From assembly GCA_965243025.1 (NCBI GenBank), contig CBDETY010000003.1, positions 4,096,001 through 4,160,000 of the forward strand: DNA of 64,000 nt. The letters are read 5' to 3'. Below, piece after piece: positions 4,866-23,347 of the stretch. How positions within the stretch are numbered: position 1 is the first letter of the stretch; each line of letters begins with the position of its first letter. The translations under genes were made by a program, and so were the position numbers. Origin of the DNA: Candidatus Latescibacterota bacterium. Lineage in GTDB: Bacteria; Latescibacterota; UBA2968; UBA8231. The notes beneath the pieces were generated by a model. That model saw nothing but the letters and a program-made list of their open reading frames with translations, ran no database searches and had not been told where the DNA came from.

Positions 4866-4968
4866 AGCTAACGTTTTCTCGCCCTTGAATCGCGAAGCGG
4901 TCTGGCGAAGATCCGAATGGGGCAAGGTCATGGTGTTAATCATGTGTTGGAGCACTGGGCGGTCAGGT
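4866..4968. repeat. attC-like site with two stacked right arms
   Basis: AGCTAAC...CGCGAAGCG...GTTAATC (4935-4941), followed by a second end GTCAGGT (4962-4968) that matches the 5' end of the 4990-5412 cassette. Confidence 0.75.
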
Positions 4969-4989
4969 GGGAATCCTCGTCGCCGATCA

Positions 4990-5412
4990 TCAATCATTCC
5001 CCTGGCGCGTACTCCGATAGCCAGTTCCCGGGTAACGCCCAGCCAAATCGGCACTCTCCGTGTCTGAAAGCATTTCCGTGTCGGCCAGAGGAACTTCTTC
5101 AACAAGCTGCACCTTGAGTACTCTCATAGTCTTCCAGTGGGTGCGATCGGTACCCTGTCGTTCTTCGAGGTCCTGATCGTCGAGAGGTTCTGCGACAACG
5201 TAAAGAAATCCAGGGATCTTCCCATCGTGGCGAACCGCCGTGAAGTCGTCGTCAGAGACAGTTATGCGAGTTGGCCTGTGCGAAAAGGCTCTTGCGAGCT
5301 CCCTGAACGGAGTAACCCAGCTACCGGGCAGAAGAGTATCCAGTTCTTCGGGCGACCCGTGAAACCAGGGTCTATGTCTTGATGCGTCCCAAACGCTCAT
5401 GGGCTGGGTCAT
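4990..5412 (-). CDS. Putative ADP-ribosyltransferase-fold (Arr-like) protein (cassette gene)
   Basis: WFHGS...SWVTPFRELARAFS...GFLYVVAEP resembles the Arr FYHGT/YFT/IYIVEP motifs, and the size (140 aa) fits. Confidence 0.5.
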   Translation of the reverse strand: MTQPMSVWDASRHRPWFHGSPEELDTLLPGSWVTPFRELARAFSHRPTRITVSDDDFTAVRHDGKIPGFLYVVAEPLDDQDLEERQGTDRTHWKTMRVLKVQLVEEVPLADTEMLSDTESADLAGRYPGTGYRSTRQGND

Positions 5413-5435
5413 GACTCCTTCATCGCCCCAAATTC

Positions 5436-5524
5436 ACCTGACCTTCTACGAATTGCGGACCTGCGAAGCAGGTTGCCGAAGGACAAGGCGCCCCCTGGGC
5501 GATGCACAAGCCGATCAGTCATCG
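5436..5524. repeat. attC-like site, degenerate right end
   Basis: ACCTGAC left end, internal ACCTGCGAAGCAGGT and GGTTGCCGAAGG motifs shared with other sites. Confidence 0.7.
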
Positions 5525-5604
5525 GCTGAGGGCTTCTATCAAGACTCTTTACCCCACCCGAACAGGACACGGGCTTTTTTCGCCGCGTGGAGTCATTCTC
5601 ATAA

Positions 5605-6309
5605 TCATGTCAGGTGATAATCCACACCATACTGGATCAAGCCTAAGCGTCGAGCCAATCCCTGGGAAGCCAGATTTTCCCACGATGTACTGTAAAGCGG
5701 GACGAGGTCAAGTTCACGCACTGCAAGGGCCCACGCAGCGACAGCTGATACAGCGTAACCCCGCTGGCGGTAGATCTCCAGCGTATCAACTCCTGCCTCA
5801 TGCGCCCTCCATGATGAGCGGACACTTTGGCAAATCGACACGGCTTGGGAATCCTGGACAACCGCCAACCAGGGCCATCCACTATCCAATTCCGGCACCA
5901 TCTTGGCAAAGTTCCCCCTCAGAAGCCCTGCGTTTTCGACTGATAGCCGAACAACATTTGCTGGCGGATCGAGGCAATCCGGAAAGCGGTAAGCGGGCCC
6001 TCCCCACACCCGTTCAACCGGGGCATGGCCATGGAGGATGTCCTGGAATTGGCTGTGACCTCTTGGGAATTTCCGGGAATCCATAAGCACCGGCTCGGCG
6101 GCGGCAGCTTCCTTCAGGGAAGTAACCAAATTTTCAGGAAGGTCATTTCGGAATAGGCATATCGAACCTTCCCTGGTTCGCCCGAAGAAGAAACGGGGAG
6201 CTGGACCAGGATCCCCACCAGGATCGTTTATCCCTCGAAGACGCCCATTTCCTTCAGACGTGAACAGCGCCTCAACGTGTATTTCCATCAGTTCCCTATC
6301 TGACACCAT
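5605..6309 (-). CDS. GNAT family acetyltransferase (cassette gene)
   Basis: EAGVDTLEIYRQRGYA, YSTSWENLASQGLARRLG. Confidence 0.85.
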   Translation of the reverse strand: MVSDRELMEIHVEALFTSEGNGRLRGINDPGGDPGPAPRFFFGRTREGSICLFRNDLPENLVTSLKEAAAAEPVLMDSRKFPRGHSQFQDILHGHAPVERVWGGPAYRFPDCLDPPANVVRLSVENAGLLRGNFAKMVPELDSGWPWLAVVQDSQAVSICQSVRSSWRAHEAGVDTLEIYRQRGYAVSAVAAWALAVRELDLVPLYSTSWENLASQGLARRLGLIQYGVDYHLT

Positions 6310-6338
6310 GCTCCATTACCGATCCAGTCATCCATACC

Positions 6339-6423
6339 GCCCAACGTTTTCGCCGTGTCCGAACCGCCACAGCAGTTGCGCCAAGGTGCGACAGCCCTAA
6401 ACCCGGGCAGGACAGTGTTATGT
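6339..6423. repeat. attC-like site
   Basis: GCCCAAC...GTTATGT. The stop codon of the upstream hydrolase (6418-6420) lies inside the core site, as in integron cassettes. Confidence 0.85.
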
Positions 6424-7146
6424 GCTGTGGGCAAATCTCTTTGCAAACTCCCTCAAGATATCTTTGAGCAATTCTTCATTCCCAACCCAAATCTGATGAT
6501 CGGCGGTCTCAAGAAACTCCATCTGTGCGTTCGGCAACAGCTGAGCAATTTGCTCGACCGGCCAACTCGGCCTGATATCCTGTTTGCCATAAACGAAAAG
6601 TGCAGGTACGGTCAATGATGCCAGGTCCCGAAACAGCGTTGGGTGTTTGATATATTCTTTCCAAGACCTGCCGACCTGCGTGTTCATCTCCATATTTGGG
6701 GGATATGCCAGCTCTGGTGGTGCCTCAAGCCCCTGATCGCGCCGCTCGCTGTAAATTCGGTGCCAGTCCCGGTCGTTGTGTACCCGACCTCCTGAAAGAC
6801 AAATGAAGCCATGCACATGCTCGGAAAATCGCATCGAATAGGCCAACGACAAGTCCGCCCCAAATGAGTGACCAACCATGATCCACCGATCGACACCATA
6901 GTGATGTCGAATGGCGTGCAAGTCCTCAAGGCAGGTTTCAAGTGTATACGTCCTCATCTTGTCAGACCGGCCACATCCTCTGTGATCGAAGCGAATCACT
7001 TTGCACAGATCATCGAGCATTCCTGCGAGGGGTCCAAGATAGTCGCAGCAGCCAGAACCACCACTGCACAGCACCAACGGCACACCTCTCCCCTGCGCTA
7101 TTGTCCACAGGCGGAAATCTCCAACTTCAACGAACGACTCAGTCAT
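6418..7146 (-). CDS. Alpha/beta hydrolase, proline iminopeptidase-like (cassette gene)
   Basis: FDHRGCGRS, GHSFG nucleophile elbow, C-terminal His. Confidence 0.9.
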   Translation of the reverse strand: MTESFVEVGDFRLWTIAQGRGVPLVLCSGGSGCCDYLGPLAGMLDDLCKVIRFDHRGCGRSDKMRTYTLETCLEDLHAIRHHYGVDRWIMVGHSFGADLSLAYSMRFSEHVHGFICLSGGRVHNDRDWHRIYSERRDQGLEAPPELAYPPNMEMNTQVGRSWKEYIKHPTLFRDLASLTVPALFVYGKQDIRPSWPVEQIAQLLPNAQMEFLETADHQIWVGNEELLKDILREFAKRFAHST

Positions 7147-7173
7147 TTTGGGGAAACACCTAAATGTCCATTG

Positions 7174-7261
7174 CAAATACGTCTCTCGAATTCCCGAACC
7201 TCGCAGCGGTGGGCTTAAGCGCTCTTGTCGTCCTCCGAAGGCGGGACTTGCGGAATTAGCG
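7174..7261. repeat. attC-like site (degenerate)
   Basis: CAAATAC-GTC...ATTAGCG with internal GCA/GAA-loop hairpins. The stop of CDS 7256-7789 lies in the right end. Confidence 0.65.
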
Positions 7262-7789
7262 TATCCGACTCACAACGAGCGAATCCAACTTGGATGAACA
7301 CCCCGCACCACCCTCATCGTGCCACACGCGTACTACAAGGTTGTCCTTTAAATGTACCCTTGACTGTTCGCCAGATCTCCCTCGAAGGAGAGTTGCAGCG
7401 CGCTCGGCTGCCTGGGAATCGGAGAATCTGAGTCCAAATATCCCTGCTTCTCCCTCACCGTGGTAAACGGAAAACAGAAACTCCTCCAATTCCGCCAAGA
7501 GTTCTCTCATTGCACTGGACGTCGAACCCTCACCTTCATCCTCGGAGCCTTGATGGCGATGGTGTTGATGAGGGGCCAGCAGCATCCCACCGAAACACTT
7601 CAGATATTCCCGGTCAGAGGTTACAAAGGGATTGCCTGGCGCCCCGCATGGTAACTCCGCGTCAGACGGTACGGCAGCCAATTCACACTCCTGTAAATCG
7701 TCACTCCCAAAAGTCAGCTCGGCTAACTGCATGGGAGAAGAACAGCTTAGGGTTCCACTTGCTATGGCAACCAAGGCTGGAATCTTCAT
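7256..7789 (-). CDS. Hypothetical putative lipoprotein (cassette gene)
   Basis: Short hydrophobic N-terminus ending TLSC. Bounded by att-like sites. Confidence 0.6.
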   Translation of the reverse strand: MKIPALVAIASGTLSCSSPMQLAELTFGSDDLQECELAAVPSDAELPCGAPGNPFVTSDREYLKCFGGMLLAPHQHHRHQGSEDEGEGSTSSAMRELLAELEEFLFSVYHGEGEAGIFGLRFSDSQAAERAATLLRGRSGEQSRVHLKDNLVVRVWHDEGGAGCSSKLDSLVVSRIR

Positions 7790-7797
7790 GTCCTAGT

Positions 7798-7861
7798 CCG
7801 AACCGCGAATGCAGTGGTGCGAGGGGCGGCAGCGCCGGAGCCGGGTACGGAGGTGTTACCT
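7798..7861. repeat. attC-like site lacking its left arm
   Basis: CCGAACCGCGAATGCAGTGGTGCGAGG...GGTGTTACCT. The tail GTTACCTGCCCGTGGCAGT resembles CGTACCTGCCTGTGCCAGT at 12220. Confidence 0.6.
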
Positions 7862-8002
7862 GCCCGTGGCAGTCTTGATGCCGCGTCGCATTCTCGCGAC
7901 AAAAGCCCAGGGAATTTCCCTGAACTGCGACTTGCCCAGCTCACGTTCCTGCTGTGGCTCGAATACGGGCCCGGCAATACCATCCAGAACCAGACCGGAC
8001 TC

Positions 8003-8029
8003 GGCGCAGCGCAAAACCCCGAGTTGAGC
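8003..8029. repeat. Half attC-like site (right arm only)
   Basis: GGCGCAGCGCAAAAC...GTTGAGC, the same right-arm motif as the 23249-23347 site. Confidence 0.6.
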
Positions 8030-8035
8030 CGTGAC

Positions 8036-8479
8036 CTACGTCCCCAGCTCTTTGAACAGGAAAAGCTCCCCCAGGTCGTCCTCAAACGGAAAACCTGCCA
8101 GAAACCCGCACTCAGAAAACCCCATGTGTCTATGCCATGTCTGCGGCTGGAACTCATCTACAACACACGAACTCAACAGGAACCTGTGGCCTCGGCGCAA
8201 CAGATTATCTTCTACGAACGCCAACATAGCCTTCCCAACACCTTTTCGCTGGTGCTCACGCAATACGTTGATCAGGCTGACAAATGCGGTGCCGCCGCCA
8301 TGTCCTGGCCACAAAAAGCATAGGTGAAGCATTCCCACGAGTTCACCTTGCAACTCCGCGACGATCACTTCGTTTATGCCGGGGACCTGCTCCGCAAATC
8401 GATTCGAGTCAAATGTGGCAGTCTTTACACACCACTCGACATCCGCCTTGCTGGCAGGTCTCACCAGTATGTCTGCCAT
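8036..8479 (-). CDS. GNAT N-acetyltransferase (cassette gene)
   Basis: INVLREHQRKGVGKAML, WHRHMGF. Start moved to MADILV. Confidence 0.85.
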   Translation of the reverse strand: MADILVRPASKADVEWCVKTATFDSNRFAEQVPGINEVIVAELQGELVGMLHLCFLWPGHGGGTAFVSLINVLREHQRKGVGKAMLAFVEDNLLRRGHRFLLSSCVVDEFQPQTWHRHMGFSECGFLAGFPFEDDLGELFLFKELGT

Positions 8480-8514
8480 GGTTCCCCGTATTTCGCAGGA
8501 CAATCGAGGCTTTC

Positions 8515-8605
8515 GCTTAACGTCTGTCGATCCACGAATCTCCAAAGCAGGTTGCTCGCAGGACCAAGGCGCGCCCGCGCCGCAGGGAGTATCGAAATGT
8601 TTCCA
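8515..8605. repeat. attC-like site
   Basis: GCTTAAC...GTTTCCA with inner TCGAT/ATCGA inverted repeat. Confidence 0.7.
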
Positions 8606-8616
8606 GGAGTAATCCC

Positions 8617-9249
8617 CTAAGCATCAATTTCGAGAATCATATCCAATGACTCTTTCCCACTACTTGTACAGAACTGTCCAACCTGCCTGAACCCGCACTT
8701 TCGATAAAAGTGAATAGCACGAGCGTTGGAGCGGAATACGCCCCCGAGAAGAATGATCCTTCGTTTTCCAAATCTTCTTGCCAATTCTGCTAATCGTGGA
8801 AACACAGCGCTTCCGATTCCCCGGCTTTGGTACTCATCCGCAAGGCAAGGAGCAAATCGGCAATCGCTTTCACGATTCAGATGGAAGTCGTAGTTCCCAA
8901 ACCGAACAACATCTTCGGCGGTAATATCGAAACTGTATTCCAAGAGTCCAATTATGCAATTAAATTGAGCAAGCACAAACCTGAGTTTGTCGTAACAGCC
9001 GATTGCGGCGCACATATCGGCGGCGCTCTCATCATACCGACATACTTCCCACGTCTCGGGCTTCAAATTCGAAAAAAACGATGCGAGAGAATCCAGATCA
9101 GCGTGTACCAATGGTCGCAGAACGAACGACAGATCAAAGCCTAACCTGATCTCTTCTGAGAATTCCTCAGGATTTCGGGAAATGTCTGAAAGAGTGAGAC
9201 TAAAAACAGAATCCTCAGAGTGGACCCGTTGTTTGTCATACATGGGCAT
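8617..9249 (-). CDS. GNAT N-acetyltransferase (cassette gene)
   Basis: LADEYQSRGIGS, NARAIHFYRKCGF. Start placed just inside the att core. Confidence 0.85.
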   Translation of the reverse strand: MPMYDKQRVHSEDSVFSLTLSDISRNPEEFSEEIRLGFDLSFVLRPLVHADLDSLASFFSNLKPETWEVCRYDESAADMCAAIGCYDKLRFVLAQFNCIIGLLEYSFDITAEDVVRFGNYDFHLNRESDCRFAPCLADEYQSRGIGSAVFPRLAELARRFGKRRIILLGGVFRSNARAIHFYRKCGFRQVGQFCTSSGKESLDMILEIDA

Positions 9250-9252
9250 TTC

Positions 9253-9378
9253 TGATAACGTTTTATCGGTTTGGAAAGGCCTCTCCCCAAGCGGTGCCCA
9301 AGGCCAAGGCGCCATTGGCGCCGTAGCTGAAAATCGTGCTGTTATTCGATGTGCTGAAGCGGCAGCCGGGTGTTATGT
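9253..9378. repeat. attC-like site plus a second stacked right arm
   Basis: TGATAAC...GTTATTC (9341-9347), then GAAGCGGCAGCCGGGT-GTTATGT (9372-9378). Confidence 0.8.
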
Positions 9379-9410
9379 GACGTGGCCCCGAATGGACGAT
9401 TGGTTCCCGG

Positions 9411-10220
9411 TTATTTGTCAGCGCTCGTGTGTATTTCACAGGCCCTCATGAACCTCGGCACGTCAGCGCAGTTCGTTGACCGACAGTGCATCAGGAGTGG
9501 ATGGCCGATCATGGCGTCACCGGGCTTCCCGGTCAACTCAATGATGCGGACGGGAAATCCATTAACATCAGTCGTTTGATCCATCAACCGGCTGACGCGA
9601 GTAATGGGGTTCTCGCTTGCTTGGGTCAGTTCCATGAGCCATGGATGAGTGCTGAAGAACCTTTTCTTGATTTTCCTGCCGTTCCGGGAAAACAAGCTCT
9701 TCTCTTGCGTACGGTAGAAGTGCCTTATCAACCGATGACTCCCGTCGGCTATGTGCGTTCCACCGCCGTGAGATCGGACCTCGGTAATGAACGAGAAATT
9801 CAAAAGCCCATCAAGCTTTTCTACGTTGCGGAAGCCCGAGTTGTGCCAGTGCCAATTCCGGCTGGCGACATTCCACTGTTCATCGAGGGCTTCGGGAAAC
9901 GAGAACACAAGACTGCCCCAGTCTCGGGGTTTCTCCCAACAACCCTTTTCCAACAGCTGATCAATTGCTGATACGAATTTCGCTGATACTGCATCGCGAA
10001 ATACGCGGGTAGATCGAACCGTACGGCTCAGCCCACCTGTCTGATTACGCTCCCAGGTGGCGAGGTCGTTCCGCATGATACCATGCCGTTCCAACCAACG
10101 CCAGACAATGTCCTCCATCTGCCGGCAGTCCACTGGATCAAATGCACCGGGAAAAATGATGTAGCCATGTGTCTCGAAGTGGTCGAGGTCATCCTGTGAG
10201 AGAACTTTTTCTTCTGCCAT
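9411..10220 (-). CDS. Phytanoyl-CoA dioxygenase (PhyH) family protein (cassette gene)
   Basis: LDHFETHGYII, WHWH, GGGTHIADGSH, GKPGDAMIGHPLLMH. Confidence 0.85.
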   Translation of the reverse strand: MAEEKVLSQDDLDHFETHGYIIFPGAFDPVDCRQMEDIVWRWLERHGIMRNDLATWERNQTGGLSRTVRSTRVFRDAVSAKFVSAIDQLLEKGCWEKPRDWGSLVFSFPEALDEQWNVASRNWHWHNSGFRNVEKLDGLLNFSFITEVRSHGGGTHIADGSHRLIRHFYRTQEKSLFSRNGRKIKKRFFSTHPWLMELTQASENPITRVSRLMDQTTDVNGFPVRIIELTGKPGDAMIGHPLLMHCRSTNCADVPRFMRACEIHTSADK

Positions 10221-10269
10221 TATACTTGGTGGAGGCAAGATTACATCCAGCGGTAGTTATTCCATTTCA

Positions 10270-10356
10270 GGTAAACATTTCGCCGGTTTTCAAATCTGCG
10301 AATCGGGTTGCCGAAGACCATGGAGCGTACCTACGTAGCGCAATTCGCTGTTGGAC
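10270..10356. repeat. attC-like site
   Basis: GGTAAAC...GGTTGCCGAAG...GTTGGAC. The right end GTTGGACGAC matches the cassette start GTTAGGCGAC. Confidence 0.75.
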
Positions 10357-10382
10357 GACGTGGGGAAAAATTCGTGACAAGG

Positions 10383-10925
10383 CTAGTTCAAAAGTAGTGT
10401 GCCCGGGACTCGAAGAATCTCGCACTTTTTGAACGTACCTTTGTCGTATGTCAATCTTACCCCTTCGCAATAGTTACATGAAGGTCCCCAAGTTTCATGG
10501 TCCGCACCGGGCACGCAACGAACTGCACTGGCTTCGATAAAACCCCCATGAGAAACCAACAGTGCTCGGCCGCCTTCCTGGAGCGACCGGGCTACGTCGA
10601 GGTGGAACTCGGCCAGTTGGTCCGCCAGATTTGCCACAACGCTGCCTGGGTATTGACGGATATAAGAAGAAAAGTCCCCAAATCCTGCGTCGAAGAAAAC
10701 CTCCACATCTTGGGGCATGGAAGCGAGCAGTTCGACCTGTTGGTCGACCGCAAATCCCATGGCAATGCTGGTTTCAAATGCGCGAGGGGCGGTACTCGTG
10801 TAGACCATGTCGAATGCGGTCATCTCCTCTCCAACTCGCCTGGCAAGATTAACCCCGTCTTGAGAAAGATGCTGTCCCGGTTTCCCCCTCATTGAGTGTC
10901 GTCGATGTTCAATGAATCTCCCCAT
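10383..10925 (-). CDS. Histidine phosphatase family protein (cassette gene)
   Basis: RRHS (RHG-like), VYTSTAPRAFET, LLVSHGGFI. Confidence 0.8.
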   Translation of the reverse strand: MGRFIEHRRHSMRGKPGQHLSQDGVNLARRVGEEMTAFDMVYTSTAPRAFETSIAMGFAVDQQVELLASMPQDVEVFFDAGFGDFSSYIRQYPGSVVANLADQLAEFHLDVARSLQEGGRALLVSHGGFIEASAVRCVPGADHETWGPSCNYCEGVRLTYDKGTFKKCEILRVPGTLLLN

Positions 10926-10936
10926 TCAGAGTTACC

Positions 10937-11344
10937 TCAGTCGGTTAAATGGTTCTCGTCCATGTCGCCTAACGTCTCCCGGTCTGCGACCCGCGCAGCC
11001 GGTTGCCGAAGGCCAACCGTGACCTTGTCGGCCTTCGCCGCCTCTCCTTGCAAACCTGGCGTATGGAGGACAAAGTGGTAATGGTCCTCGGAACAGGACA
11101 AGAACGTGTGCACCTCCCGCGGTTCGATGATGACGCCCGATTTCTCGGCAAAGTATAACTCCTCACCTTCGACAAGCATTGTGGCGTCGCCCTGCGCAAA
11201 CAGATAGATCTCGGTGGTAGTTTTATGGGAATGGGGTTCATTTATGGCGATGTTCGCATAACCGATCGAAATGTTAAGGTCTGAGTCCCAAGGCCCTACA
11301 AACCAGCCCTTGTCCATGTTTGTATCCGGCTCAATGATTCTCAC
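10937..11344 (-). CDS. Cupin-domain protein, paralogue of 19390-19725, reading through a half att site
   Basis: HxH...E...H cupin motif. About 19 differences in ~109 aa against the 19.4 kb copy (hand count). Native stop lost. Confidence 0.8.
   Translation of the reverse strand: MRIIEPDTNMDKGWFVGPWDSDLNISIGYANIAINEPHSHKTTTEIYLFAQGDATMLVEGEELYFAEKSGVIIEPREVHTFLSCSEDHYHFVLHTPGLQGEAAKADKVTVGLRQPAARVADRETLGDMDENHLTD
10967..11016. repeat. Half attC-like site (left arm only)
   Basis: GCCTAAC-GTC...CCGCGCAGCCGGTTGCCGAAGGCCAA joined directly to cupin coding sequence. Confidence 0.8.
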
Positions 11345-11373
11345 TAATTTTGCCCTCCAGCTCGTTGCATTTC

Positions 11374-11455
11374 GAATAGGTTTCGCCATGCACCAAGCGG
11401 CGAACCAGTTGGTGAAAACGCGCCAGCGCAAAAGCCGGACACGGACGTGTTATAT
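11374..11455. repeat. attC-like site
   Basis: GAATAG-GTTTCGCC...GTTATAT. The left flank is nearly identical to the flank at 19741-19761. Confidence 0.75.
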
Positions 11456-11479
11456 GTCGTGCCTCCGTCGCACCGAGGA

Positions 11480-12082
11480 TCACTTGCTCTCCTTCAGTCG
11501 ATGCAAATGGGAGGCATTGTTGTATTGGACAAGGGTCCAGATTCCGTCGGCCAGAGACCATTCCGTAATGCCTGTATTCAAAGGATCCAGCCAGACCTTG
11601 GTCCCGGTTCCTGAAAAAAGCATTTTCGTTGAGCCGACGATGAATCCGCCATGAGTCACTGCTACTACTGTCTGTCCGTTGAATCGCTCCGAGTAGGACA
11701 ACAACGTCGATCGTGCTCTGTCAAACAGCTCCTGGAAGGTTTCGGCGCCCGGAGGCGGGGAATCTCCGTACTTTGCCTGGATCCCGGAGGTGGTGAGACC
11801 CTCGGCTTGTCCCAGTCGCAGCTCACAAAGATCTGGATCCTCGGTTACGCATTGGGCCGGCAGTACATCCAACAGGATCTTTGCGGTCTGACGCGCCCGT
11901 GCAATAGTGCTGCTGAGCAGTGTTTCACAATCGGAGAATTCACCTGATTCTCGGATATGTGTCGCAAGCGCATAAACTTGCTCCCTGCCCAAGTCCGTGA
12001 GGCCCGAGCACGTGCGCTCACCGGAGTTCGTCTCGGTAAGCTGGTCCTTGCTTTGTCCGTGCCTGACGAGTACCAGTCGCAT
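11480..12082 (-). CDS. Histidine phosphatase family protein (cassette gene)
   Basis: LVLVRHGQS, SSTIARARQTA, VTHGGFI. Confidence 0.9.
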   Translation of the reverse strand: MRLVLVRHGQSKDQLTETNSGERTCSGLTDLGREQVYALATHIRESGEFSDCETLLSSTIARARQTAKILLDVLPAQCVTEDPDLCELRLGQAEGLTTSGIQAKYGDSPPPGAETFQELFDRARSTLLSYSERFNGQTVVAVTHGGFIVGSTKMLFSGTGTKVWLDPLNTGITEWSLADGIWTLVQYNNASHLHRLKESK

Positions 12083-12120
12083 TGGATGCCAGTGTCCCCT
12101 CGCAGAGATAGAGATTCGAG

Positions 12121-15693: not shown

Positions 15694-15698
15694 TTTTT

Positions 15699-16563: not shown

Positions 16564-16617
16564 CAGGAGAGTTTGAATGGATGGCCGACCAGTTGGGCAA
16601 GAGTGCTCTCTGGCACG

Positions 16618-17439
16618 TCACTCTCCATCAGCGTTCGATGGCGACCGATGTTGGGCAAACAGCCAGCCCAGCAACCCTGGGGTATCGAACGCCAGGGGCC
16701 AGACCACATGGCCCGCTTCCGAAAATTCCGTGTATCTCGGGGCACTTCCCACTTCTTGCAGGGCCTTGATCATTGCGCGGGAGTTCGCGACGCGATAGCC
16801 GGTGTCCTTTGCGCCTTGGAAGGACCAGACCGGCACATGCGAAAGAGTAGCCGCCTGTTCGGGCAAGCCCTTCCCACACACTGGAATGGCCGCGGCAAAG
16901 GCGTTGGGCCGTGCAGCCATCAGCTCCCACGTACCTCCGCCCCCCATTGACTGACCCGTCACATAGACACGATCTGGATCGACCGGGAATTCGCTCAGCA
17001 CTTGATCAATGAGACCGAGTACGCGTCCACCCACCCCTTCTGACACGCGCCAGCTCGTCTCTGGGGGGCACTGGGGGACGAGAAGAAAACTGGGATAGGC
17101 CGTGCGGTTGGCCTCAGTGGCGAGAATCTGGGCCGCCCAGCAACCCCGGATCTGTTGCACATTGTCCATGCCCCGGCCTCCGGATCCCGACAGGCAGACA
17201 ACCAGAGGATATGATCTTTGGGGGACGTGATCCAGGGGCTTTAGGAGCCGGTAGAGCAGGGAATCACCCGAGGCAGTACGGTAAGTACGAGGTTCGAATT
17301 GTTGGGCTAATTCGGCAGCGTATTCGCCCCCGGCCTTGTGGCGTTCTTCAGCGGATGGTCCATCGGATGCCCTACCTGAGTGCACGTGCCCGAAGACCAG
17401 GGGCACCGCCAAGATCCCGAGGACATATTTGTTTGTCAT
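16618..17439 (-). CDS. Secreted alpha/beta hydrolase (esterase/predicted peptidase)
   Basis: YPLVVCL.G.GGRG.DN, VDPDRVYVTGQSMGGGGTW, plus a signal peptide. Confidence 0.9.
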   Translation of the reverse strand: MTNKYVLGILAVPLVFGHVHSGRASDGPSAEERHKAGGEYAAELAQQFEPRTYRTASGDSLLYRLLKPLDHVPQRSYPLVVCLSGSGGRGMDNVQQIRGCWAAQILATEANRTAYPSFLLVPQCPPETSWRVSEGVGGRVLGLIDQVLSEFPVDPDRVYVTGQSMGGGGTWELMAARPNAFAAAIPVCGKGLPEQAATLSHVPVWSFQGAKDTGYRVANSRAMIKALQEVGSAPRYTEFSEAGHVVWPLAFDTPGLLGWLFAQHRSPSNADGE

Positions 17440-17532
17440 AAGGGATTACAGGACAGTAGCGGGAACTGCAGTGTCTTAATCGTGAGCATTGCACAGTCAA
17501 TCTGAATAGACAGGCTCATTCTTTGCCATGTC

Positions 17533-17619
17533 TATATAGTTCTCGCCGTGCTCAAGCTGACGTAGCCAGTTACGGCGAAGGCGTCTCCGCGCCGTAGCCG
17601 GGCACCGTACGCGTTATAT
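17533..17619. repeat. attC-like site
   Basis: TATATAG...TACGGCGAAGG...GCCGTAG...GTTATAT. Confidence 0.7.
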
Positions 17620-17704
17620 GAAGGCGATGATTTACCCTCTATGTTTCAAGGGCGACCCTTAAGAGAATTCGACCTAACCTCCATCGAATTCTCTGAGATC
17701 GAGT

Positions 17705-18502
17705 CTATTGCTCCCCTTCCTCCCGCTTTAGCATATAGACTGTGAACTCTCCGATTAATCGAAACCCGATATGTGTGGCCAATCGTTCAGATACTGTGTT
17801 TCCTGGCCATGTATGCCAAGTTGGTTCCAATCTTGCGGCGAGACAACCCTCAATGTATGCGGCAGTTACTTGCGTGGCATATCCCTTGCGGCGGAATGGC
17901 TCGCCCGTCCTCAGTTGAGGATCCGCCCAACCTGCGCCGACGAGAGCTGTGAAGCAAAAACTGGCAAGGTTATCCCCCTCAAAGAGGCCGTAGCCCAGAC
18001 CCTCTCTACAGAAATGCTCTACTGAGTCGAAATACCAGAGAATCCCCGACTCCGAATCTTGATCAATTAAGTCGGCAAGTGACTCATTGATGCGCTCTAT
18101 CCTACAACCGGGCGCCAGTTTCGTCGGGGTAGACATCTTTTTGTATGAGTTTTCGTCGAACCGGTAGGATAACATCTGGTATGGCTCGGACGAATCTCTC
18201 ATGAATGTCCTCAGGCGATCCTGCCAATATCCAGCCGTCCCACATAGGTGAAGCACGTCATTGTCGATCTTATCAAACAGTTCTCGCTCCAATTCATCTG
18301 AGAAGGACTCATTTTCACCTCCCACATAGGAGTATCCTGTGGAATGACAGACGACCGTAGCGCGGGGTGCTATTGCGTCGTCAACGAAAATCCTACCGAT
18401 CTGCTTCTGCTCGATCACGCTGTGTGGTAGCGAAGGCCACATTTCGATTCCCTCAAACAGAGGAGCAACCCGCTGAAAATTAGCCGGGGTGAGTTCGATC
18501 AA
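17705..18502 (-). CDS. GNAT family acetyltransferase (cassette gene)
   Basis: TGEPFRRKGYA, NTVSERLATHIGF. Confidence 0.85.
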   Translation of the reverse strand: MIELTPANFQRVAPLFEGIEMWPSLPHSVIEQKQIGRIFVDDAIAPRATVVCHSTGYSYVGGENESFSDELERELFDKIDNDVLHLCGTAGYWQDRLRTFMRDSSEPYQMLSYRFDENSYKKMSTPTKLAPGCRIERINESLADLIDQDSESGILWYFDSVEHFCREGLGYGLFEGDNLASFCFTALVGAGWADPQLRTGEPFRRKGYATQVTAAYIEGCLAARLEPTWHTWPGNTVSERLATHIGFRLIGEFTVYMLKREEGEQ

Positions 18503-18531
18503 TTTTTTTGCCCGTTAGGGTCAAGGAGGGT

Positions 18532-18562
18532 AAACGCCGCAGCGGGAATGGACGTGTCAGCA
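18532..18562. repeat. Half attC-like site (right arm only)
   Basis: CGCCGCAGCGGGAAT...GTCAGCA. Resembles the right arm of the 22541 site and matches the cassette start GGCAGCAGAC. Confidence 0.55.
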
Positions 18563-18575
18563 AACCGTTTCAGAT

Positions 18576-19250
18576 TCACCCAATGATAAGCGAATTGGGG
18601 GAAGATGCCGGGAGACCTGCGTCGAACCGCCGATAACCAAACCTCTCAAAGGTCTCTGATTCGTACGCCCAGACAACCTTCTCCTCGTCTTCATTGAAAT
18701 GGTCAAAGAACGTCCCCGGCGGCCGGATTCCTCGCTCAAGTGCACGTGGGTACTCCGGCGCGTCGTCGCTGACGAATGGCAACTCTTTGAGGCACTGCGG
18801 AAGACGCTCGTATAATAGCACCTGTGTTACACCTGCGGCCTTGCAATAATACCACTGATTCATCACACTCTCTGGGCAATCGCCACCCCCAAGTTGTGTC
18901 CCGTCCTTCTCAAGCGTGTAGCCCCGAATCCGTTCCTCCAGGGACTCCGGGTGCTCCTTCGGAAGCTCGACTTGCTCTCTCAGACTTTCGTGTGGCTCAC
19001 GGTCTCCCAAGCTTTCGTATTTCCCTTTTCCCCCCCAAGGAATAGCGAACGCTCCACTCGTGTGCCGGTCATAGGGATTCCGAACGATGGTGAAGATCAG
19101 GTAACCTCTAGCCTCTTCCGGAACGACCATGTCGTGGTGCCCCCCCACGGTTTGCCCCTGGTAGTGAGTGCAGAGCCAACGAATCATCGACTTCGAACTG
19201 GTCCTGGGGATGCCGATGTAGGCATATCTGAGGAAATGAGAAAGGACCAT
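18576..19250 (-). CDS. Sulfotransferase-family (Sulfotransfer_2-like) protein (cassette gene)
   Basis: YIGIPRTSSKS and FTIVRNPYDR PAPS-binding motifs, GGAGG RBS. Confidence 0.75.
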   Translation of the reverse strand: MVLSHFLRYAYIGIPRTSSKSMIRWLCTHYQGQTVGGHHDMVVPEEARGYLIFTIVRNPYDRHTSGAFAIPWGGKGKYESLGDREPHESLREQVELPKEHPESLEERIRGYTLEKDGTQLGGGDCPESVMNQWYYCKAAGVTQVLLYERLPQCLKELPFVSDDAPEYPRALERGIRPPGTFFDHFNEDEEKVVWAYESETFERFGYRRFDAGLPASSPNSLIIG

Positions 19251-19281
19251 ATATCGCCTCCACTGCCAATGCTTGAATGTC

Positions 19282-19378
19282 TGCTGCCGTTTATCGGTTT
19301 GCGGACCCCGAGTTTGGCGAGGGGTTGCCGAAGGCCAAAGCCCCAAAAGCCCCGCAGAGCAGCACCGTGATGTTATTC
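19282..19378. repeat. attC-like site
   Basis: Internal GGTTGCCGAAGGCCAA. The right end GTTATTCGAT matches the cassette start GTTATTCGAA. Confidence 0.8.
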
Positions 19379-19389
19379 GATGTGATCAA

Positions 19390-19725
19390 TCACGCAACCC
19401 TGACTTTGTCGTTAACCGCTGCCTCTCCCTGCAAACCTGGCGTATGGATGACAAAGTGGTAATGGTCCTCGGAACAATACAAGAACGTGTGCACCTCTCC
19501 AGGTTCGATGATGACGCCAGATTTCTCGGCAAAGCTAAACTCCTCGCCATCGACAAGCATCGTGATGTGGCCGTGCGCAAACAAATAGATTTCGGTGGTA
19601 GACCTGTGATAATGGGGTTCGTTTATGGCGGTGTTTGCATATCCGATTGAAATGTTCAGATCTGAGTCCCAAGGTCCAACAAACCAGCCCTTTTCCATTT
19701 TATTATCCGGCTCAATGATTCTCAC
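19390..19725 (-). CDS. Cupin-domain protein (cassette gene)
   Basis: PHYH...EIY...IEPGEVHTF. Confidence 0.85.
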   Translation of the reverse strand: MRIIEPDNKMEKGWFVGPWDSDLNISIGYANTAINEPHYHRSTTEIYLFAHGHITMLVDGEEFSFAEKSGVIIEPGEVHTFLYCSEDHYHFVIHTPGLQGEAAVNDKVRVA

Positions 19726-19754
19726 TTGCTTTGGCCTCCAGCTCGTTGCATTTC

Positions 19755-19833
19755 GAATAACGTTTCAGTGCCCCGCATCGCGAAGCGGTTGGGCGAAGGG
19801 CCGAATGGCCCAAGCCGGGGCACCATGTTAGAG
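19755..19833. repeat. attC-like site (best preserved)
   Basis: GAATAAC...GTGCCCCG/CGGGGCAC...GTTAGAG. The upstream gene's stop lies within the core. Confidence 0.9.
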
Positions 19834-20406
19834 GACGTGGCTTCCCTCAACGCTCGCTGGAAATCGTCTATCGGACTCGTTCGCATGAGATGCAAGCCAG
19901 GCCTTCTTTGTCAGTAAGAACTGACGTGCTGCTTCCCCCTTGAACTTGGAACTATTGTAGACAAACCCTTCAGTCTCCTGAAAGCCGTTTTTTTCGAGGA
20001 CACGGGCTGATCCAGGATTTCGCCTTAAGCAGGCGGAGCGAACGGTTTCCATTCCGAGCTCGAGGAAGGCATACCGTAGTGCCAAAGAAACGGCCTTGGT
20101 TGTAATTCCCTTTCCCCAGTAGGCCGAGGCAATGGCGTAATCGCATTGGATGCTACCGCTCTCCAAATCACTTCCCCCTAATTCAACGACTCCTATCATC
20201 TCTCCGTCGGCAACGATGGCAAAGAAGAAACCCGCTCCGTTTCGGCGGGCATCAACGGCCTGTTCCACAAACCTTGCAGCGCCATCCTCTGGATAGGGCT
20301 CGGGAATCGTAGTGGTTCGTGCTACCCGCTCATCAGAGGCGTAACGTTGGACCGCCGGTTCGTCGCCAATCCGCAGTGGCCGGATTGTAACCTTTAGTTC
20401 TGTCAT
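19828..20406 (-). CDS. RimJ/RimL-type GNAT (cassette gene)
   Basis: YWGKGITT, NPGSARVLEKNGF. Confidence 0.9.
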   Translation of the reverse strand: MTELKVTIRPLRIGDEPAVQRYASDERVARTTTIPEPYPEDGAARFVEQAVDARRNGAGFFFAIVADGEMIGVVELGGSDLESGSIQCDYAIASAYWGKGITTKAVSLALRYAFLELGMETVRSACLRRNPGSARVLEKNGFQETEGFVYNSSKFKGEAARQFLLTKKAWLASHANESDRRFPASVEGSHVL

Positions 20407-21143
20407 CGTCTCCTTCCCATGTCCTCTAACTGATTGCCATTCACGAAGCCGCGTAGCGGCTGTCGAGGGATCTTACACTGGGCCTCAAGGTGGCGAAGAT
20501 CGTCCTGATCCAGACTGCAATCGTTGCTGTGGACGTACGAATCCAGATCCATTAGAATCAATCGATGAAAACGAGCATCCAGTGCTCTCAATCCCCACTC
20601 TCCGGCCTCTATCTTGGTGCAGAGACGGCGTTCCGCCAAGGTAAATGCAACGCGGCAAAACATCAGCGCAGGATTCTTGAAGTGGGTCCGTATCTGCGGA
20701 ACAACGTGCCGAATGCACTGCCGCAGTAAAGGCCACGGAACGCGTTTCAGAATCCTGTTGTGAGGTGTACCGAGAAGATCCCTCCCTGATTCAAAAATAT
20801 CTTGCCTCAACAAGAGAAAATCTTTGCTACCATCAGGCTTGAGGACAATTGTATTGTTCATCTTGAGAAGGAAATCAACAGGAGTGGGGAAAACGTCGGC
20901 GTTGATATGGTCTATCGTTGCTGCTGTTATGTCGTAAGACAGAGACTGTGATTTTACGTGTTCCAGGAGATGCACCCTTTTCTCCGACGGAGTGGGACGC
21001 TTCGTGACAAGAAGAAGGTCAACATCACTCGTCTCAGGATTGCCAGACTCCCGAGCGCGTGAGCCACCCATCCAAACCGATTCCAGTTCTCCTTCGTAAA
21101 TCTCACCGAGTCCCTCCACAAAGCCATCTATTGCACTTCTCAT
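20403..21143 (-). CDS. Nucleotidyltransferase, aminoglycoside adenylyltransferase (AadA/DUF4111)-like, with C-terminal read-through
   Basis: GS...SDVDLL NTase motif and CRVAFTL...TKIEAGEWGL C-terminal domain. The last ~20 aa are encoded by an att relic. Confidence 0.75.
   Translation of the reverse strand: MRSAIDGFVEGLGEIYEGELESVWMGGSRARESGNPETSDVDLLLVTKRPTPSEKRVHLLEHVKSQSLSYDITAATIDHINADVFPTPVDFLLKMNNTIVLKPDGSKDFLLLRQDIFESGRDLLGTPHNRILKRVPWPLLRQCIRHVVPQIRTHFKNPALMFCRVAFTLAERRLCTKIEAGEWGLRALDARFHRLILMDLDSYVHSNDCSLDQDDLRHLEAQCKIPRQPLRGFVNGNQLEDMGRRR
20424..20465. repeat. Half attC-like site inside the end of a CDS
   Basis: GTCCTCTAAC is the exact reverse complement of GTTAGAGGAC (19827-19836). 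It is followed by the AGCCGCGTAGCGGCT hairpin. Confidence 0.8.
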
Positions 21144-21257
21144 GGCAAGAATTACCGGGGAGAAATGAATCGGGCTCCTGTCCGACCTCTATCTAACATC
21201 GAGGAAGCATATCCTGGAGTGATGTCAATATGGCCAGCTTCACTTATATGCGATGAC

Positions 21258-21339
21258 ACCTAACGTTTCAGTGCCGCCGAACCGCGCAGCGGTTGGGCGA
21301 AGGGGCTCTTGTCCCGAAGCCGGGGGCACGGTGTTACAT
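21258..21339. repeat. attC-like site
   Basis: ACCTAAC...GTGCC/GGCAC...GTTACAT, internal GCGGTTGGGCGAAGGG. Confidence 0.9.
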
Positions 21340-21376
21340 GAAGTGCGCTGATACCCTGCGATATCGGATCCGATGC

Positions 21377-21958
21377 TTAACCGCTTCCTATGCCTGAAAC
21401 AACGACGCAAACAGCACTGGCAGTGTCGATATGGGTCAGATAGTAGTCTTCCGCTGCCCTCCATCTCCGAATCCATTCGTCTGTGTTTTCACCTCGCTTG
21501 ACCAGCCTATCCAAACATTCGGCCTTGGGAGTGTCGACGAAAATGGAGAAGCCATAGAAGTTCCTCAATTCCGGCCGATAAGAATAGACCCCATCGATCA
21601 GTATGATGCCCTCAGCCGGTTGGTCAATCCACTCCGCCAGCTGGTTGATCCCCCAATCATAGCGCTGGTAGCGAGTTCGATCTCCACCCGATAAAGGTTT
21701 AAGGAGTTCACTTCGCATCCTTACCCAATCAAAATACCTCATGTAACCATCTTCAGGCGTTAGAGCCCTTCTCTCAGACTCCCCCATTGGAGTATAGAAG
21801 TCATCCCCGTGAACGATTGAGATGAGATTACATGTCTCGCTTAGTTTCCTGGCGATGGTTGACTTTCCAGCTCCGCCGGGACCATCGAGTGCGACTACGA
21901 GAAGGCTATTCGAGCCCAATTCCGAGACAAGCCGCGATGAGAGAACATTAACGTCCAT
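21377..21958 (-). CDS. Uridine kinase-like P-loop kinase (cassette gene)
   Basis: VALDGPGGAGKST, HGDDFY, LIDGVYS. Confidence 0.85.
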   Translation of the reverse strand: MDVNVLSSRLVSELGSNSLLVVALDGPGGAGKSTIARKLSETCNLISIVHGDDFYTPMGESERRALTPEDGYMRYFDWVRMRSELLKPLSGGDRTRYQRYDWGINQLAEWIDQPAEGIILIDGVYSYRPELRNFYGFSIFVDTPKAECLDRLVKRGENTDEWIRRWRAAEDYYLTHIDTASAVCVVVSGIGSG

Positions 21959-21998
21959 GTCGTGTCAGCGTCTATTGCAGATGTCGATCAAGCATTTC

Positions 21999-22082
21999 AT
22001 ATATCGTTCCGGGCGGGCTGCGAACCCGCGCAGCGGGTTGGTGCGAAGGCCAATGGCCGGTCCGCAGCCCGGCGTAGTATGC
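21999..22082. repeat. attC-like site
   Basis: ATATATC...GGGCTGCG/CGCAGCCC...AGTATGC, internal AACCCGCGCAGCGGGTT. Confidence 0.8.
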
Positions 22083-22108
22083 GGCGTTTCTCACGCCCTT
22101 TTTACCCC

Positions 22109-22474
22109 TCAACGAATACTTGAGGCACAATCCAAAAAGGTCTCTGCATCCAAATCGAAACTGGGAGTATGGAGGAGGAGTAGAGTCGCGTCTTCATCGG
22201 ATGAATTCTCGTATGAAAAACTTTGACCTTGCTGGACGAGACAAAAGTCGGCGCCTTCGAGCCGATACTCCTTCCCCTCTATCGTGAAGAGGACTATTCC
22301 ATTCAAAACGTAGTAGTACTTGTCAGAGCGCTCCGACCTTGCCTTCCGATGACCTCTGCCAGGACCAACTTTTATTTTGGCAAGCGAGGAACTGATATTC
22401 ACACCTGAGGTGTAGTCGAATATCTGAAGGCCTTCGAATTCAATCGGAGCTACCGCCGAAGAGTTCACTACCAT
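22109..22474 (-). CDS. Cupin-domain protein (cassette gene)
   Basis: KYYYVLNG...IEGKEYRL...GQSFSYEN beta-barrel pattern. Confidence 0.8.
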   Translation of the reverse strand: MVVNSSAVAPIEFEGLQIFDYTSGVNISSSLAKIKVGPGRGHRKARSERSDKYYYVLNGIVLFTIEGKEYRLEGADFCLVQQGQSFSYENSSDEDATLLLLHTPSFDLDAETFLDCASSIR

Positions 22475-22540
22475 TTGTGGGTCCTTGATGGCACTGGGGT
22501 TGGAATTTCAGAAGTCCTTAGAGGACGTAAATTAAATGCC

Positions 22541-22630
22541 GTATAACGTCTCACAATTCACGGAGTCGCGAATGCGACTTGCCGCAGCCCCAGCGCCGAG
22601 AGGCGCGTAGCGGGAATTGCTGTGTTATAT
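22541..22630. repeat. attC-like site
   Basis: GTATAAC...CAATTC/GAATTG...GTTATAT with several internal mini-hairpins. Confidence 0.9.
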
Positions 22631-22643
22631 GAAGTGGAGGACA

Positions 22644-23219
22644 TCACTTGCGTTCAGCCATTCGATCGAAGGCATTCGGACGGCTTCGGGTGTTCCAAGC
22701 ATCGACTACAGCTGCTGCGATAGCTTCGCTCGGCTGCGTCGAGTCGACCTCCAGATCGTACTCGATGAAACTGTGAACTATGTGAAAGTCCGCTCTGGCT
22801 TCTCCAGGTCCCCGGTCTCCTCTGGTGCGCTCCCTTCGCTCTAGCTCTGAGAGCGGACAGTGCACCCCGACGACGAAAACATCAAAAGCGGAAAGAAGAT
22901 CTAACAAATCTGACAACCACTCCTCGGTCTCGACTATGTGGTCAACGATGAGATTGTTGCCTGCACCGGCCAAAACCGGAAGACAACGGTGAAACCCATC
23001 GAATACCGCTGGCCGCATGGCTGGCCAATCGAGTTCACGATTGAGTATTCGGGACCATGGCAGAGCGTTGGAATCACGCAGATGGTCAAACGAAAAATGC
23101 CAAAAAGGAACTTCCAAGGTTTGCTGGAGGAGACGTGCGAGCGTCGACTTTCCTGCACTTGATGCGCCGTTTATGAGAATGATCTTGCCCTGGTCTCGAT
23201 CGTTATCCAAGTGTATCAA
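22644..23219 (-). CDS. Chloramphenicol phosphotransferase (CPT)-like kinase (cassette gene)
   Basis: IILINGASSAGKST, GNNLIVD, VGVHCPL..LERRE..RGDR, YDLEVDST. Confidence 0.85.
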   Translation of the reverse strand: MIHLDNDRDQGKIILINGASSAGKSTLARLLQQTLEVPFWHFSFDHLRDSNALPWSRILNRELDWPAMRPAVFDGFHRCLPVLAGAGNNLIVDHIVETEEWLSDLLDLLSAFDVFVVGVHCPLSELERRERTRGDRGPGEARADFHIVHSFIEYDLEVDSTQPSEAIAAAVVDAWNTRSRPNAFDRMAERK

Positions 23220-23248
23220 GAATCCTGTTCAGCTTTTTAACTCATGTC

Positions 23249-23347
23249 ATATAACGTTACGCCGGTTTGCGAACGCCGAGTCAGTCGAGGCGTTGCCGAA
23301 GGCCAAGACGCCCGAAGGGCGGCGCAGCGCAAAACGTGCTGATATTT
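23249..23347. repeat. attC-like site with a GAT core
   Basis: ATATAAC...GCCGAAGGC, GCCCGAAGGGC, GCGCAGCGC...GATATTT. Confidence 0.85.

Follow-up and report, generated by a model that had tools for sequence, protein, structure and literature searches.

Branched attC Sites with Bottom-Strand C-GNA-G Motifs in a Chromosomal Integron of a Latescibacterota Bacterium

We describe a family of integron recombination sites (attC) in a Candidatus Latescibacterota bacterium (GenBank assembly GCA_965243025.1, contig CBDETY010000003.1, positions 4,096,001 to 4,160,000 of the forward strand). We call this stretch of 64,000 nucleotides, at its full length, the window. The sites belong to an integron cassette array at positions 4866-23348 of the window, which holds approximately 21 of them, 6-7 being partial or degenerate. 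They are branched, and their plus strand, which is the bottom strand of the sites, abounds in GNA trinucleotides flanked by C and G (pentamer CGNAG). This GNA feature is real, non-random and enriched on the plus strand only.

The Cassette Array and the Integrase Remnant

The G+C content is 52-62% at positions 1-24000 of the window and approximately 70% beyond position 25000 or so, where a few 1-kb windows go down to 60%. Nearly all long open reading frames (ORFs) between 4866 and 24163 are on the minus strand. The cassettes encode a PhzF-like protein, a chloramphenicol-phosphotransferase-like kinase, a nucleotidyltransferase together with a GNAT protein, several other GNAT proteins, a NUDIX protein, HAD and alpha/beta hydrolases, histidine phosphatases, a cupin and an S41 peptidase. 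These are small, mutually unrelated enzymes, as is usual in integron cassettes, and the array is a sedentary chromosomal integron.

On the plus strand at 24324-24905, divergent from the cassette ORFs, lies a remnant of the integrase gene intI (193 amino acids) with an internal deletion in frame. It scores 103.7 bits against TIGR02249 (cut-off 265) and covers only positions 238-315 of the 315 in that model. Its residues 113-187 align with IntI residues 239-313 of two relatives (55% and 53% identity), while residues 46-78 align weakly with residues 1-33 of the relatives' IntI. Approximately 200 internal codons have therefore been lost; the remnant retains an N-terminal piece and the final 78 or so residues. 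No intact integron integrase scores above the family cut-off in the whole 6.8-Mb assembly, and a search for related loci with the remnant retrieves only the conserved C-termini of recombinases from many phyla and no close relative.

The cupin cassette is duplicated (11014-11313 and 19395-19694; 85% identical), and the copy at 11 kb is without the R'' half of its own attC (site S09, 10967-11020). Mobility is indicated indirectly by this duplication and by the recurrence of the attC family in related genomes (47 of 101). The nucleotidyltransferase ORF (20403-21143) and the GNAT ORF next to it (19828-20406) overlap by ATGA and share one cassette.

Positions 1-4865 of the window also have a low G+C content (53-57%) and hold an isochorismatase-family gene, a GNAT gene and several ORFs without a Pfam match, on both strands. 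No site of the attC family was found there with the covariance model described below. The region may be a degraded, older piece of the array or a separate island.

Site Calling and Strand Assignment

The sites were called with a sequence-only covariance model (R1) made from an alignment of 14 clear intergenic repeats. Because the model is without base pairs (MAFFT failed on the variable middle of the repeats), it detects this attC family only. It replaced two ad hoc attC scans, using box motifs and arm pairing, which were too strict or too noisy. Over the whole window R1 gives 20 hits with E-values of at most 0.0015, all on the plus strand, all within 4866-23348 and between minus-strand ORFs; one further weak match is in host DNA at 53316 (E-value 0.0022). 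From these hits and inspection by eye we curated 21 attC intervals by hand (1801 nt).

The plus strand of each site begins with ..TAAC/GTT.. and ends with ..TGTTAnnnG. The TAAC at the 5' end and the TGTTA at the 3' end are nearly invariant, and the sites agree with the inverse-core and core boxes (R'', RYYYAAC; R', GTTRRRY). The box at the high-coordinate end often contains the stop codon of the upstream (higher-coordinate) ORF, for example the TAA of ORF 19828-20406, and the homology of the two cupin-cassette copies ends at the low-coordinate AAC of the neighbouring site. Together with the minus-strand ORFs and the divergent intI remnant, these features place R' (..TAAC) at the low-coordinate end of the sites. 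The plus strand is therefore the bottom strand, in agreement with the first-pass annotation of this DNA.

Strand Bias of the GNA Motifs

The first-pass annotation had listed a number of short plus-strand hairpins with GNA loops (nine by our count) as the interiors of the sites. Every one of them is found in the sequence where it had been placed, and all are within att sites except the hairpin at 20448 (loop at 20453), which is inside ORF 20403-21143, in a possible attC relic. The annotation had further claimed that such loops occur on one strand only, and had proposed a comparison with the complementary TNC loops in att sites and in coding DNA. A strand bias beyond chance is confirmed. We counted perfect Watson-Crick hairpins on the plus strand with a stem of at least 3 bp and a loop of 3 nt. 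The numbers with GNA, TNC and other loops are 12, 2 and 27 in the attC sites, 16, 24 and 231 in the rest of the array, and 50, 46 and 781 in host DNA (attC against the rest of the array: Fisher test, p = 0.0046). One of the two TNC hairpins in the attC set is GGTC-TGC-GACC in S09. Ten of the 12 GNA hairpins are closed by 5'-C...G-3' with a G/C pair behind it, the exceptions being ATT-GCA-AAT and CGG-GCA-CCG.

The pentamer C-GNA-G is a stronger signal than the triloop hairpins. CGNAG and its complement CTNCG occur 43 and 8 times in the attC sites, 65 and 84 times in the rest of the array, and 301 and 265 times in host DNA. CGNAG outnumbers CTNCG in 17 of the 21 sites, equals it in four and is fewer in none. 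The same bias appears when the array is partitioned independently of our attC calls by a greedy ORF map (CGNAG:CTNCG 35:9 in intergenic DNA, 80:87 in ORFs), and in ten sites of the same genome that were outside the training of the model (23:4).

Could this bias simply follow from an overall skew of attC bottom strands towards purines or G.T, as known from mobile integrons, with nothing specific to GNA? Bottom strands of attC sites are reported to be purine-enriched, with an advantage of 2.12 kcal/mol (Nivina 2016, PMC5027507), and in the window sites G exceeds C (592 versus 499) and A slightly exceeds T (363 versus 347). However, these skews are modest (G/C 1.19, A/T 1.05) when compared to the motif ratio of 5.4, and so the GNA bias is not a plain composition effect. 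In 1000 dinucleotide-preserving shuffles of the same strand of the sites, CGNAG occurs 12.2 ± 3.3 times (maximum 23) and CTNCG 6.2 ± 2.3 times; none of the 1000 reaches the 43 observed. The stems, too, show little skew (36 G.T versus 30 A.C cells in the alignments described in the next section). We consider a general skew a very unlikely source of the motif.

Branched Architecture and Placement of the GNA Units

The 47 genomes that carry the attC family span four families of one class. Our sample of relatives' sites, 60 sites from 33 loci, divides into two architectures (alignments of 40 and 23 sites). Since covariation supports a three-way junction in the first and a four-way junction in the second, the attC sites are branched, as had been claimed. 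The three-way type consists of the R box, an 11-bp main stem, a hairpin A and an arm B, and the latter is built of an outer stem of 2-3 bp, a 3x3 internal loop, an inner stem of 5 bp and a tetraloop. In this type 93.2% of cells are paired (33-39% when the partners are shifted), and compensatory change is seen in 14 of 28 pairs. In the four-way type, where hairpins A, B and C join a main stem, the corresponding values are 87.2%, 32-42% and 17 of 29 pairs. The R helix is paired at 96.8% in the 40 sites and at 92.3% in the 23 sites. Compensatory changes occur in the main helix, where the L stem stands above the R box, at 10 of its 11 pairs in the three-way type and at 7 of its 10 in the four-way type.

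Studied attC sites are described as having two or three extrahelical bases on the R''-L'' arm of the bottom strand, one of them a conserved G, and unpaired spacers of approximately 5-6 nt that are roughly equal on the two arms; our sites depart from this. Among 40 sites, 37 have a base in one unpaired column of the 3' arm (16 A, 11 G, 8 T, 2 C). In 12 sites the pair beside this extrahelical base is gapped, so that the base faces an unpaired 5' base; a second extrahelical base was not found in the alignment. The spacer between R and L is unpaired and strongly one-sided, with 3-5 nt on the R'-L' arm, a G and then mostly T or C (GTTT, GTTTT, GTTCC), opposite a single invariant T. It is seen in all full-length sites, e.g., at 21262-21275 and 21325-21336 in the window. 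As a side observation, hairpin A rests, in all sites, on a nearly invariant pair of triplets, AAC...GTT, that directly abuts the main stem (CG/AAC...GTT/G, as at 21279-21296) and echoes the AAC/GTT of the R box.

The GNA units lie in unpaired positions of these branches. By alignment column, 26 of 40 sites have GNA as the loop of hairpin A (27 by automatic extraction); the rest are mostly GAAT or GNNA. Hairpin A has 14 different stems, one of which, AACCGC/GCGGTT, accounts for 23 of the 40 copies. In the internal loop of arm B, 32 of 40 sites read GNA on the 5' side and 30 do so on the 3' side (there GAA 17, GGA 7, GTA 6), which makes it a symmetric GNA/GNA loop. A GNA/GNA "zipper" internal-loop motif was reportedly described by Chou and colleagues. 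The tetraloop of arm B is GAAT in 11 sites, GTAT in 6, GNNA in 8 and something else in 15. In the four-way type, hairpin B reads GCC-GNA-GGC, with two compensatory GGC...GCC variants; the tip of hairpin C is GNA, GNNA or GAAB in most rows, and a C-GCA-G stretch links hairpin C to the main stem.

The claim that the sites are capped by GNA triloops is thus correct for hairpin A and for some other branches, and it overstates the uniformity and misses the other contexts. Among the 43 CGNAG pentamers in the window sites, 16 have a Watson-Crick stem of at least 2 bp, and two more do so if G.T pairs are allowed. The 27 with a single C-G pair only are therefore not hairpin caps; they are the internal-loop and junction copies. 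Watson-Crick covariation is blind to strand and the numbers of G.T and A.C cells in the stems are similar (36 and 30), so the strand asymmetry of the sites resides in their unpaired parts.

The conservation of these units might mean little if GNA was simply inherited within one repeat family, the copies being young or homogenised and no selection acting on G..A or on the folding of single-stranded DNA. All sites do align to one consensus, one stem makes up over half of the hairpin A copies, and the three 5' positions of the arm B internal loop are near equally conserved (approximately 5, 7 and 3 non-consensus copies among 40). However, the family is spread over four families of a class and 47 of 101 genomes, and the stems around the loops covary. 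Moreover, N varies while G and A stay (in the 43 window pentamers: GAA 20, GCA 13, GTA 6, GGA 4), and the loops that have changed in length are mostly GNNA or GAAB, which also form mini-hairpins. Plain inheritance seems to us rather unlikely.

Another possibility is that C-GNA-G is an element recognised by a protein, such as the cognate integrase, an accessory factor or a primase-like enzyme, and not a device for stability. There are precedents: a change of GAA to TTC in attC aadA1 lowered IntI1 binding in vitro, as cited by Bouvier 2009 (PMC2727003), and a primase recognises the region near a CCGAAGG hairpin (PMC13037366). The motif is, however, found in three structural contexts in our sites (loop, internal loop and junction), and this fits a physical property better than a recognition element, which we take to be improbable.

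Folding Computations

The first-pass annotation had suggested folding each site with DNA parameters. GNA and TNC triloops receive equal energies from the two DNA parameter sets of ViennaRNA, and we added no bonus for GNA. In the minimum free energy (MFE) structures, the plus strand of the window sites has 5 GNA, 6 GNNA and 6 GNAB loops, compared to 0 TNC, 1 TNNC and 0 VTNC (VTNC is the complement of GNAB). The class totals on the plus strand (GNA versus TNC classes) are 26 versus 15 in 186 array pieces of 85 nt, and 53 versus 62 in 458 host pieces. In 54 sites of the relatives the MFE triloops are GNA in 35 cases, TNC in none and other in 15. The energies are not decisive: since the parameters are blind to the effect of a sheared G.A pair, the calculated energies neither test nor support the GNA claim. 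In three sites folded singly the strands differ by 0.8-2.2 kcal/mol (plus and minus, respectively: S15, -18.4 and -17.6; S17, -17.5 and -15.3; S20, -23.1 and -21.6). The MFE structure of S17 consists of the R box, the L stem, the hairpin AACCGC-GCA-GCGGTT and an arm interrupted by a GAA/GAA internal loop.

The loops of the opposite strand bear on a reading in which the motifs act in RNA, e.g., by stabilising cassette transcripts or terminating them with hairpins. In active integrons, cassettes are transcribed through attC sites from an upstream promoter, which gives this reading some ground. However, the sense transcript corresponds to the top strand, whose loops in the relatives' sites are C-TTC-G (22) and C-ATTC-G (13), i.e., UNC loops in RNA. 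To our knowledge UNC loops are not known as stable RNA loops. No Rfam family matches positions 1-26000 of the window at E-values up to 0.1. A role in RNA can be given hardly any weight.

The Individual Sites

All sites are on the plus strand; they are listed here by coordinate with their R1 scores. S01 (4866-4941; 44.6 bits), the last attC of the array, has ATCGC-GAA-GCGGT with its loop at 4894 and a second, stemless C-GAA-G at 4907. S02 (5440-5520; 25.8 bits) is partial (model positions 14-67) and contains GACCTGC-GAA-GCAGGTT (loop at 5465), CC-GAA-GG at 5478 and two CTNCG. S03 (6339-6424; 56 bits) is without CGNAG, and the loop of its first inner hairpin is CACA. S04 (7165-7262) is degenerate and was called by hand; R1 gives 8.5 bits (E-value 0.12) at 7187-7220, and the site has C-GCA-G at 7203 and CC-GAA-GG at 7237. 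Only the 3' part of S05 (7791-7862; 22.5 bits, model positions 22-88) is present, with two stemless C-GGA-G. S06 (8514-8605; 42.3 bits) has C-GCA-G at 8558 and 8582. S07 (9254-9385; 31.4 bits for 9254-9348) includes a short extra 3' fragment, and its hairpins GCC-CAA-GGC and GGCGCC-ATT-GGCGCC are both non-GNA. S08 (10271-10357; 41.1 bits) has two CGNAG and two CTNCG. S09 (10967-11020; 27.7 bits, model positions 2-53), truncated on its R'' side, abuts the duplicated cassette at 11014-11313 and holds GCC-GAA-GGC with its loop at 11008. S10 (11373-11456; 40.9 bits) has no CGNAG.

In S11 (13400-13479; 39.5 bits) the hairpin ACCGC-GAA-GTGGT contains a G.T pair (loop at 13426), and in S12 (13547-13631; 50.1 bits) the hairpin AACTGTC-GCA-GGCAGTT contains a T.G pair (loop at 13577). 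S13 (15699-15793; 41.4 bits) has three stemless CGNAG. S16 (17535-17620; 14.7 bits, E-value 0.0014) is divergent, with three CGNAG and one CTNCG. S16b (18505-18565) is a possible attC fragment; it is weak, called by hand from the motif at its 3' end, and R1 gives only 3.4 bits. S14 (19285-19379; 36.9 bits) has GCC-GAA-GGC with its loop at 19330. S15 (19755-19834; 48.2 bits) has ATCGC-GAA-GCGGT (loop at 19782), and its R'' box holds the stop codon of ORF 19828-20406. A possible attC relic (20436-20527; 14.6 bits, E-value 0.0015) with AGCCGC-GTA-GCGGCT (loop at 20453) lies within the 3' end of ORF 20403-21143, beyond the Pfam domain of that ORF, which ends at residue 215 of 246. The stretch suggests a relic that may have been absorbed when two cassettes fused. 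S17 (21258-21340; 49.9 bits) is the clearest three-way junction, with AACCGC-GCA-GCGGTT (loop at 21286). S18 (22002-22085; 18.3 bits, model positions 5-56) is partial and has AACCCGC-GCA-GCGGGTT (loop at 22030), and S19 (22541-22631; 38.9 bits) has CGC-GTA-GCG (loop at 22607). S20 (23250-23348; 46.5 bits), the first site of the array, is of the four-way type, with GCC-GAA-GGC at 23298, CGCCC-GAA-GGGCG at 23314 and GC-GCA-GC at 23324.

The Family Elsewhere in the Genome and in Relatives

Ten more sites of the family are found on the same contig, at 3029003-3086794, 5716343-5716790 and 6351905-6351997, far from any integrase (clusters of attC sites lacking integron-integrases, CALINs). The cumulative GC skew of the contig has its minimum near 4.89 Mb (origin) and its maximum near 1.69 Mb (terminus). 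In the arrays at 3.03-3.09 and 4.10-4.12 Mb the bottom strands of the sites are on the leading-strand template, which is also the orientation described for large chromosomal integrons; the pair of sites at 5.716 Mb is oriented the other way.

An intact IntI is found in only 11 of the 101 related genomes. Twelve genomes match the integrase model at an E-value of 1E-40 or better, namely these 11, which are above the cut-off, and one with a split gene below it (G026); three of the 12 also carry the attC family (G010, G023 and G026). The family is absent within 1.5 kb of the relatives' intact intI at six loci, and within 14-19 kb on the expected side at four loci. At the four loci that were fetched, the intact intI adjoins a different attC type, which includes two 56-nt copies with GCGAAGC at the tip of the predicted bottom strand. 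The mismatch of the family and intact intI may be an effect of assembly, as many of the integrase-positive assemblies are fragmented.

Discussion

What might the C-GNA-G units do? The chemistry invoked by the first-pass annotation agrees with the published work. Among the 64 GCNNNGC heptamers only those with GNA give a mini-hairpin. GCGAAGC melts at 76.5 °C, GCGAATGC at 70 °C and GCTTTTGC at 33 °C; for GAAB loops the melting range is 67-70 °C, and the binding of SSB, the protein that binds single-stranded DNA, to a mini-hairpin fragment is poor (PMC13037366). The orientation of the closing C-G pair also affects the mini-hairpin (PMC3201870).

It is tempting to hypothesize that our sites make use of this property. 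The unpaired positions of the branches on the bottom strand are built of G-N-A flanked by C and G, in the form of hairpin triloops, GNNA or GAAB tetraloops, the GNA/GNA internal loop and the C-GCA-G junction. When the bottom strand is single-stranded or extruded, these units would form mini-hairpins closed by sheared G.A pairs, very stable and poor in SSB binding, while the TNC complements on the top strand would not. The terminal structure of the bottom strand could then fold first, stay folded and shed SSB. Such early folding would bring together the two halves of a long site and bias both folding and recombination towards the bottom strand, adding to the effect of the extrahelical bases and the unpaired spacer that are read by IntI. 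We lean, by somewhat more than an even chance, to this view, i.e., one attC family with three- and four-way junctions in which bottom-strand C-GNA-G units help folding, the exclusion of SSB and bottom-strand recombination. In a stronger version, the usual marks of asymmetry are reduced in this family, and strand choice and folding depend mainly on the sheared-G.A devices of the bottom strand (triloop, internal loop and tetraloops); this version strikes us as unlikely.

Several observations weigh against this view or against a large effect. Calculated with parameters that are blind to the sheared G.A effect, the mean energies of the plus and minus strands are -14.67 and -14.06 kcal/mol, a gap of 0.61, and in 16 of 21 sites the plus strand is the more stable one. 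Wobble pairs in the stems (36 G.T, 30 A.C) do not favour the bottom strand. Of the 41 perfect triloop hairpins in the window sites, 27 have a loop other than GNA, and CGNAG is missing altogether from two sites, S03 and S10. As homologues within one family, the sites do not give independent motif counts, which are inflated by common descent, and the relatives' sites were retrieved with a model that itself contains the GNA motif. The long copies of the different attC type beside intact intI show no excess, with 5 CGNAG and 3 CTNCG in six candidate sites. The closest published test, on a derivative of the Vibrio cholerae repeat (VCR), gave small effects: with GAA in place of the 65-nt VCR terminal structure recombination rose 1.6-fold, and with TTC it fell 2.4-fold, and the authors see no role of the terminal structure in strand selectivity in this assay (Bouvier 2009, PMC2727003). 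Finally, the local integron is inactive and unable to recombine by itself, with no intact intI and 6-7 of 21 sites partial; any selection on the sites acted elsewhere or in the past.

The first-pass annotation had set these sites apart from the simple attC hairpin, and here it went too far, since GAA loops, branched structures and a role in strand choice have all been discussed before (Nivina 2016; Bouvier 2009; Grieb 2017). Most attC sites of mobile integrons have a conserved 5'-GAA-3' terminal loop on the bottom strand that "must contribute to strand selectivity," and chromosomal attC sites "can form complex branched structures" (Nivina 2016, PMC5027507). Oligonucleotides of attC aadA7 contain GCGAAGC on the strand that begins with the R' box (..TAAC) (PMC2811028). 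A GC-rich apical hairpin of 6 bp survives SSB and is recognised by IntI, and has been linked to folding nucleation (Grieb 2017, PMC5737091). In a 2024 paper this apical hairpin is called mini-hairpin-like and the terminal structure is given a "yet unknown function" (PMC11641012). In the available literature, which leaves out supplements and most subscription journals, we found no text that identifies the attC loop with a sheared-G.A mini-hairpin or describes GNA units in branched sites, and GCGAAGC turned up in integron papers only within oligonucleotide tables. GNA loops of branched sites may already be found among the supplementary attC tables and structure drawings of Nivina 2016, Loot 2017 and Bouvier 2009. 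The sites described here are a new, class-wide attC family. Our interpretation is reasonable and in substance extends published ideas, and its novelty is modest. What it adds is that one branched site holds several GNA units, that GNA stands on both sides of an internal loop, and that an explicit link to mini-hairpins is made.

If the stronger version of the hypothesis is true, the variable terminal structure of attC sites is not a passive spacer; it is an active, sequence-encoded module for folding single-stranded DNA and excluding SSB. The family provides a natural test set, with two related architectures, hundreds of copies in many genomes and a simple one-strand motif rule, C-GNA-G, which is tied to a known physical property of single-stranded DNA. 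Should the motif govern folding or SSB exclusion, it would help in predicting mobile cassettes, in detecting attC sites and assigning their strand, and in designing synthetic, structure-specific recombination sites. Should it have no such role, its strong strand-specific conservation would still need an explanation.

Comparison with Known Systems

The attC sites of mobile integrons (aadA7, aadA1, ereA2) resemble our family in that C-GAA-G closes a GC-rich stem at the tip of their bottom strand. However, they are single hairpins with one loop, while sites of the window family have 2-3 branches and 2-4 GNA units each. Some of these units are in an internal loop or junction, and N is often C, T or G instead of A.

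The VCR and other chromosomal attC sites share with our family a long site (approximately 75-100 nt here), a branched terminal structure, homogeneity within a lineage and a bottom strand on the leading-strand template (Loot 2017). This comparison is one of architecture and not of sequence, and the published texts consulted mention GAA for short sites only. In contrast to the VCR and its kin, the window family has a one-sided pyrimidine bulge of 3-5 nt beside R' and at most one extrahelical base, not two or three.

The third system comprises the d(GCGNAGC)/d(GCGNNAGC) mini-hairpins of phage and plasmid origins (G4, ssiA). These are priming or promoter signals and not recombination sites, whereas the hairpins of the window are known from sequence alone. 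Nevertheless, the two share the loop rule (GNA, GNNA, GAAB), the closing pair 5'-C...G-3' with G/C neighbours, and a setting in single-stranded DNA that needs to stay folded despite SSB.

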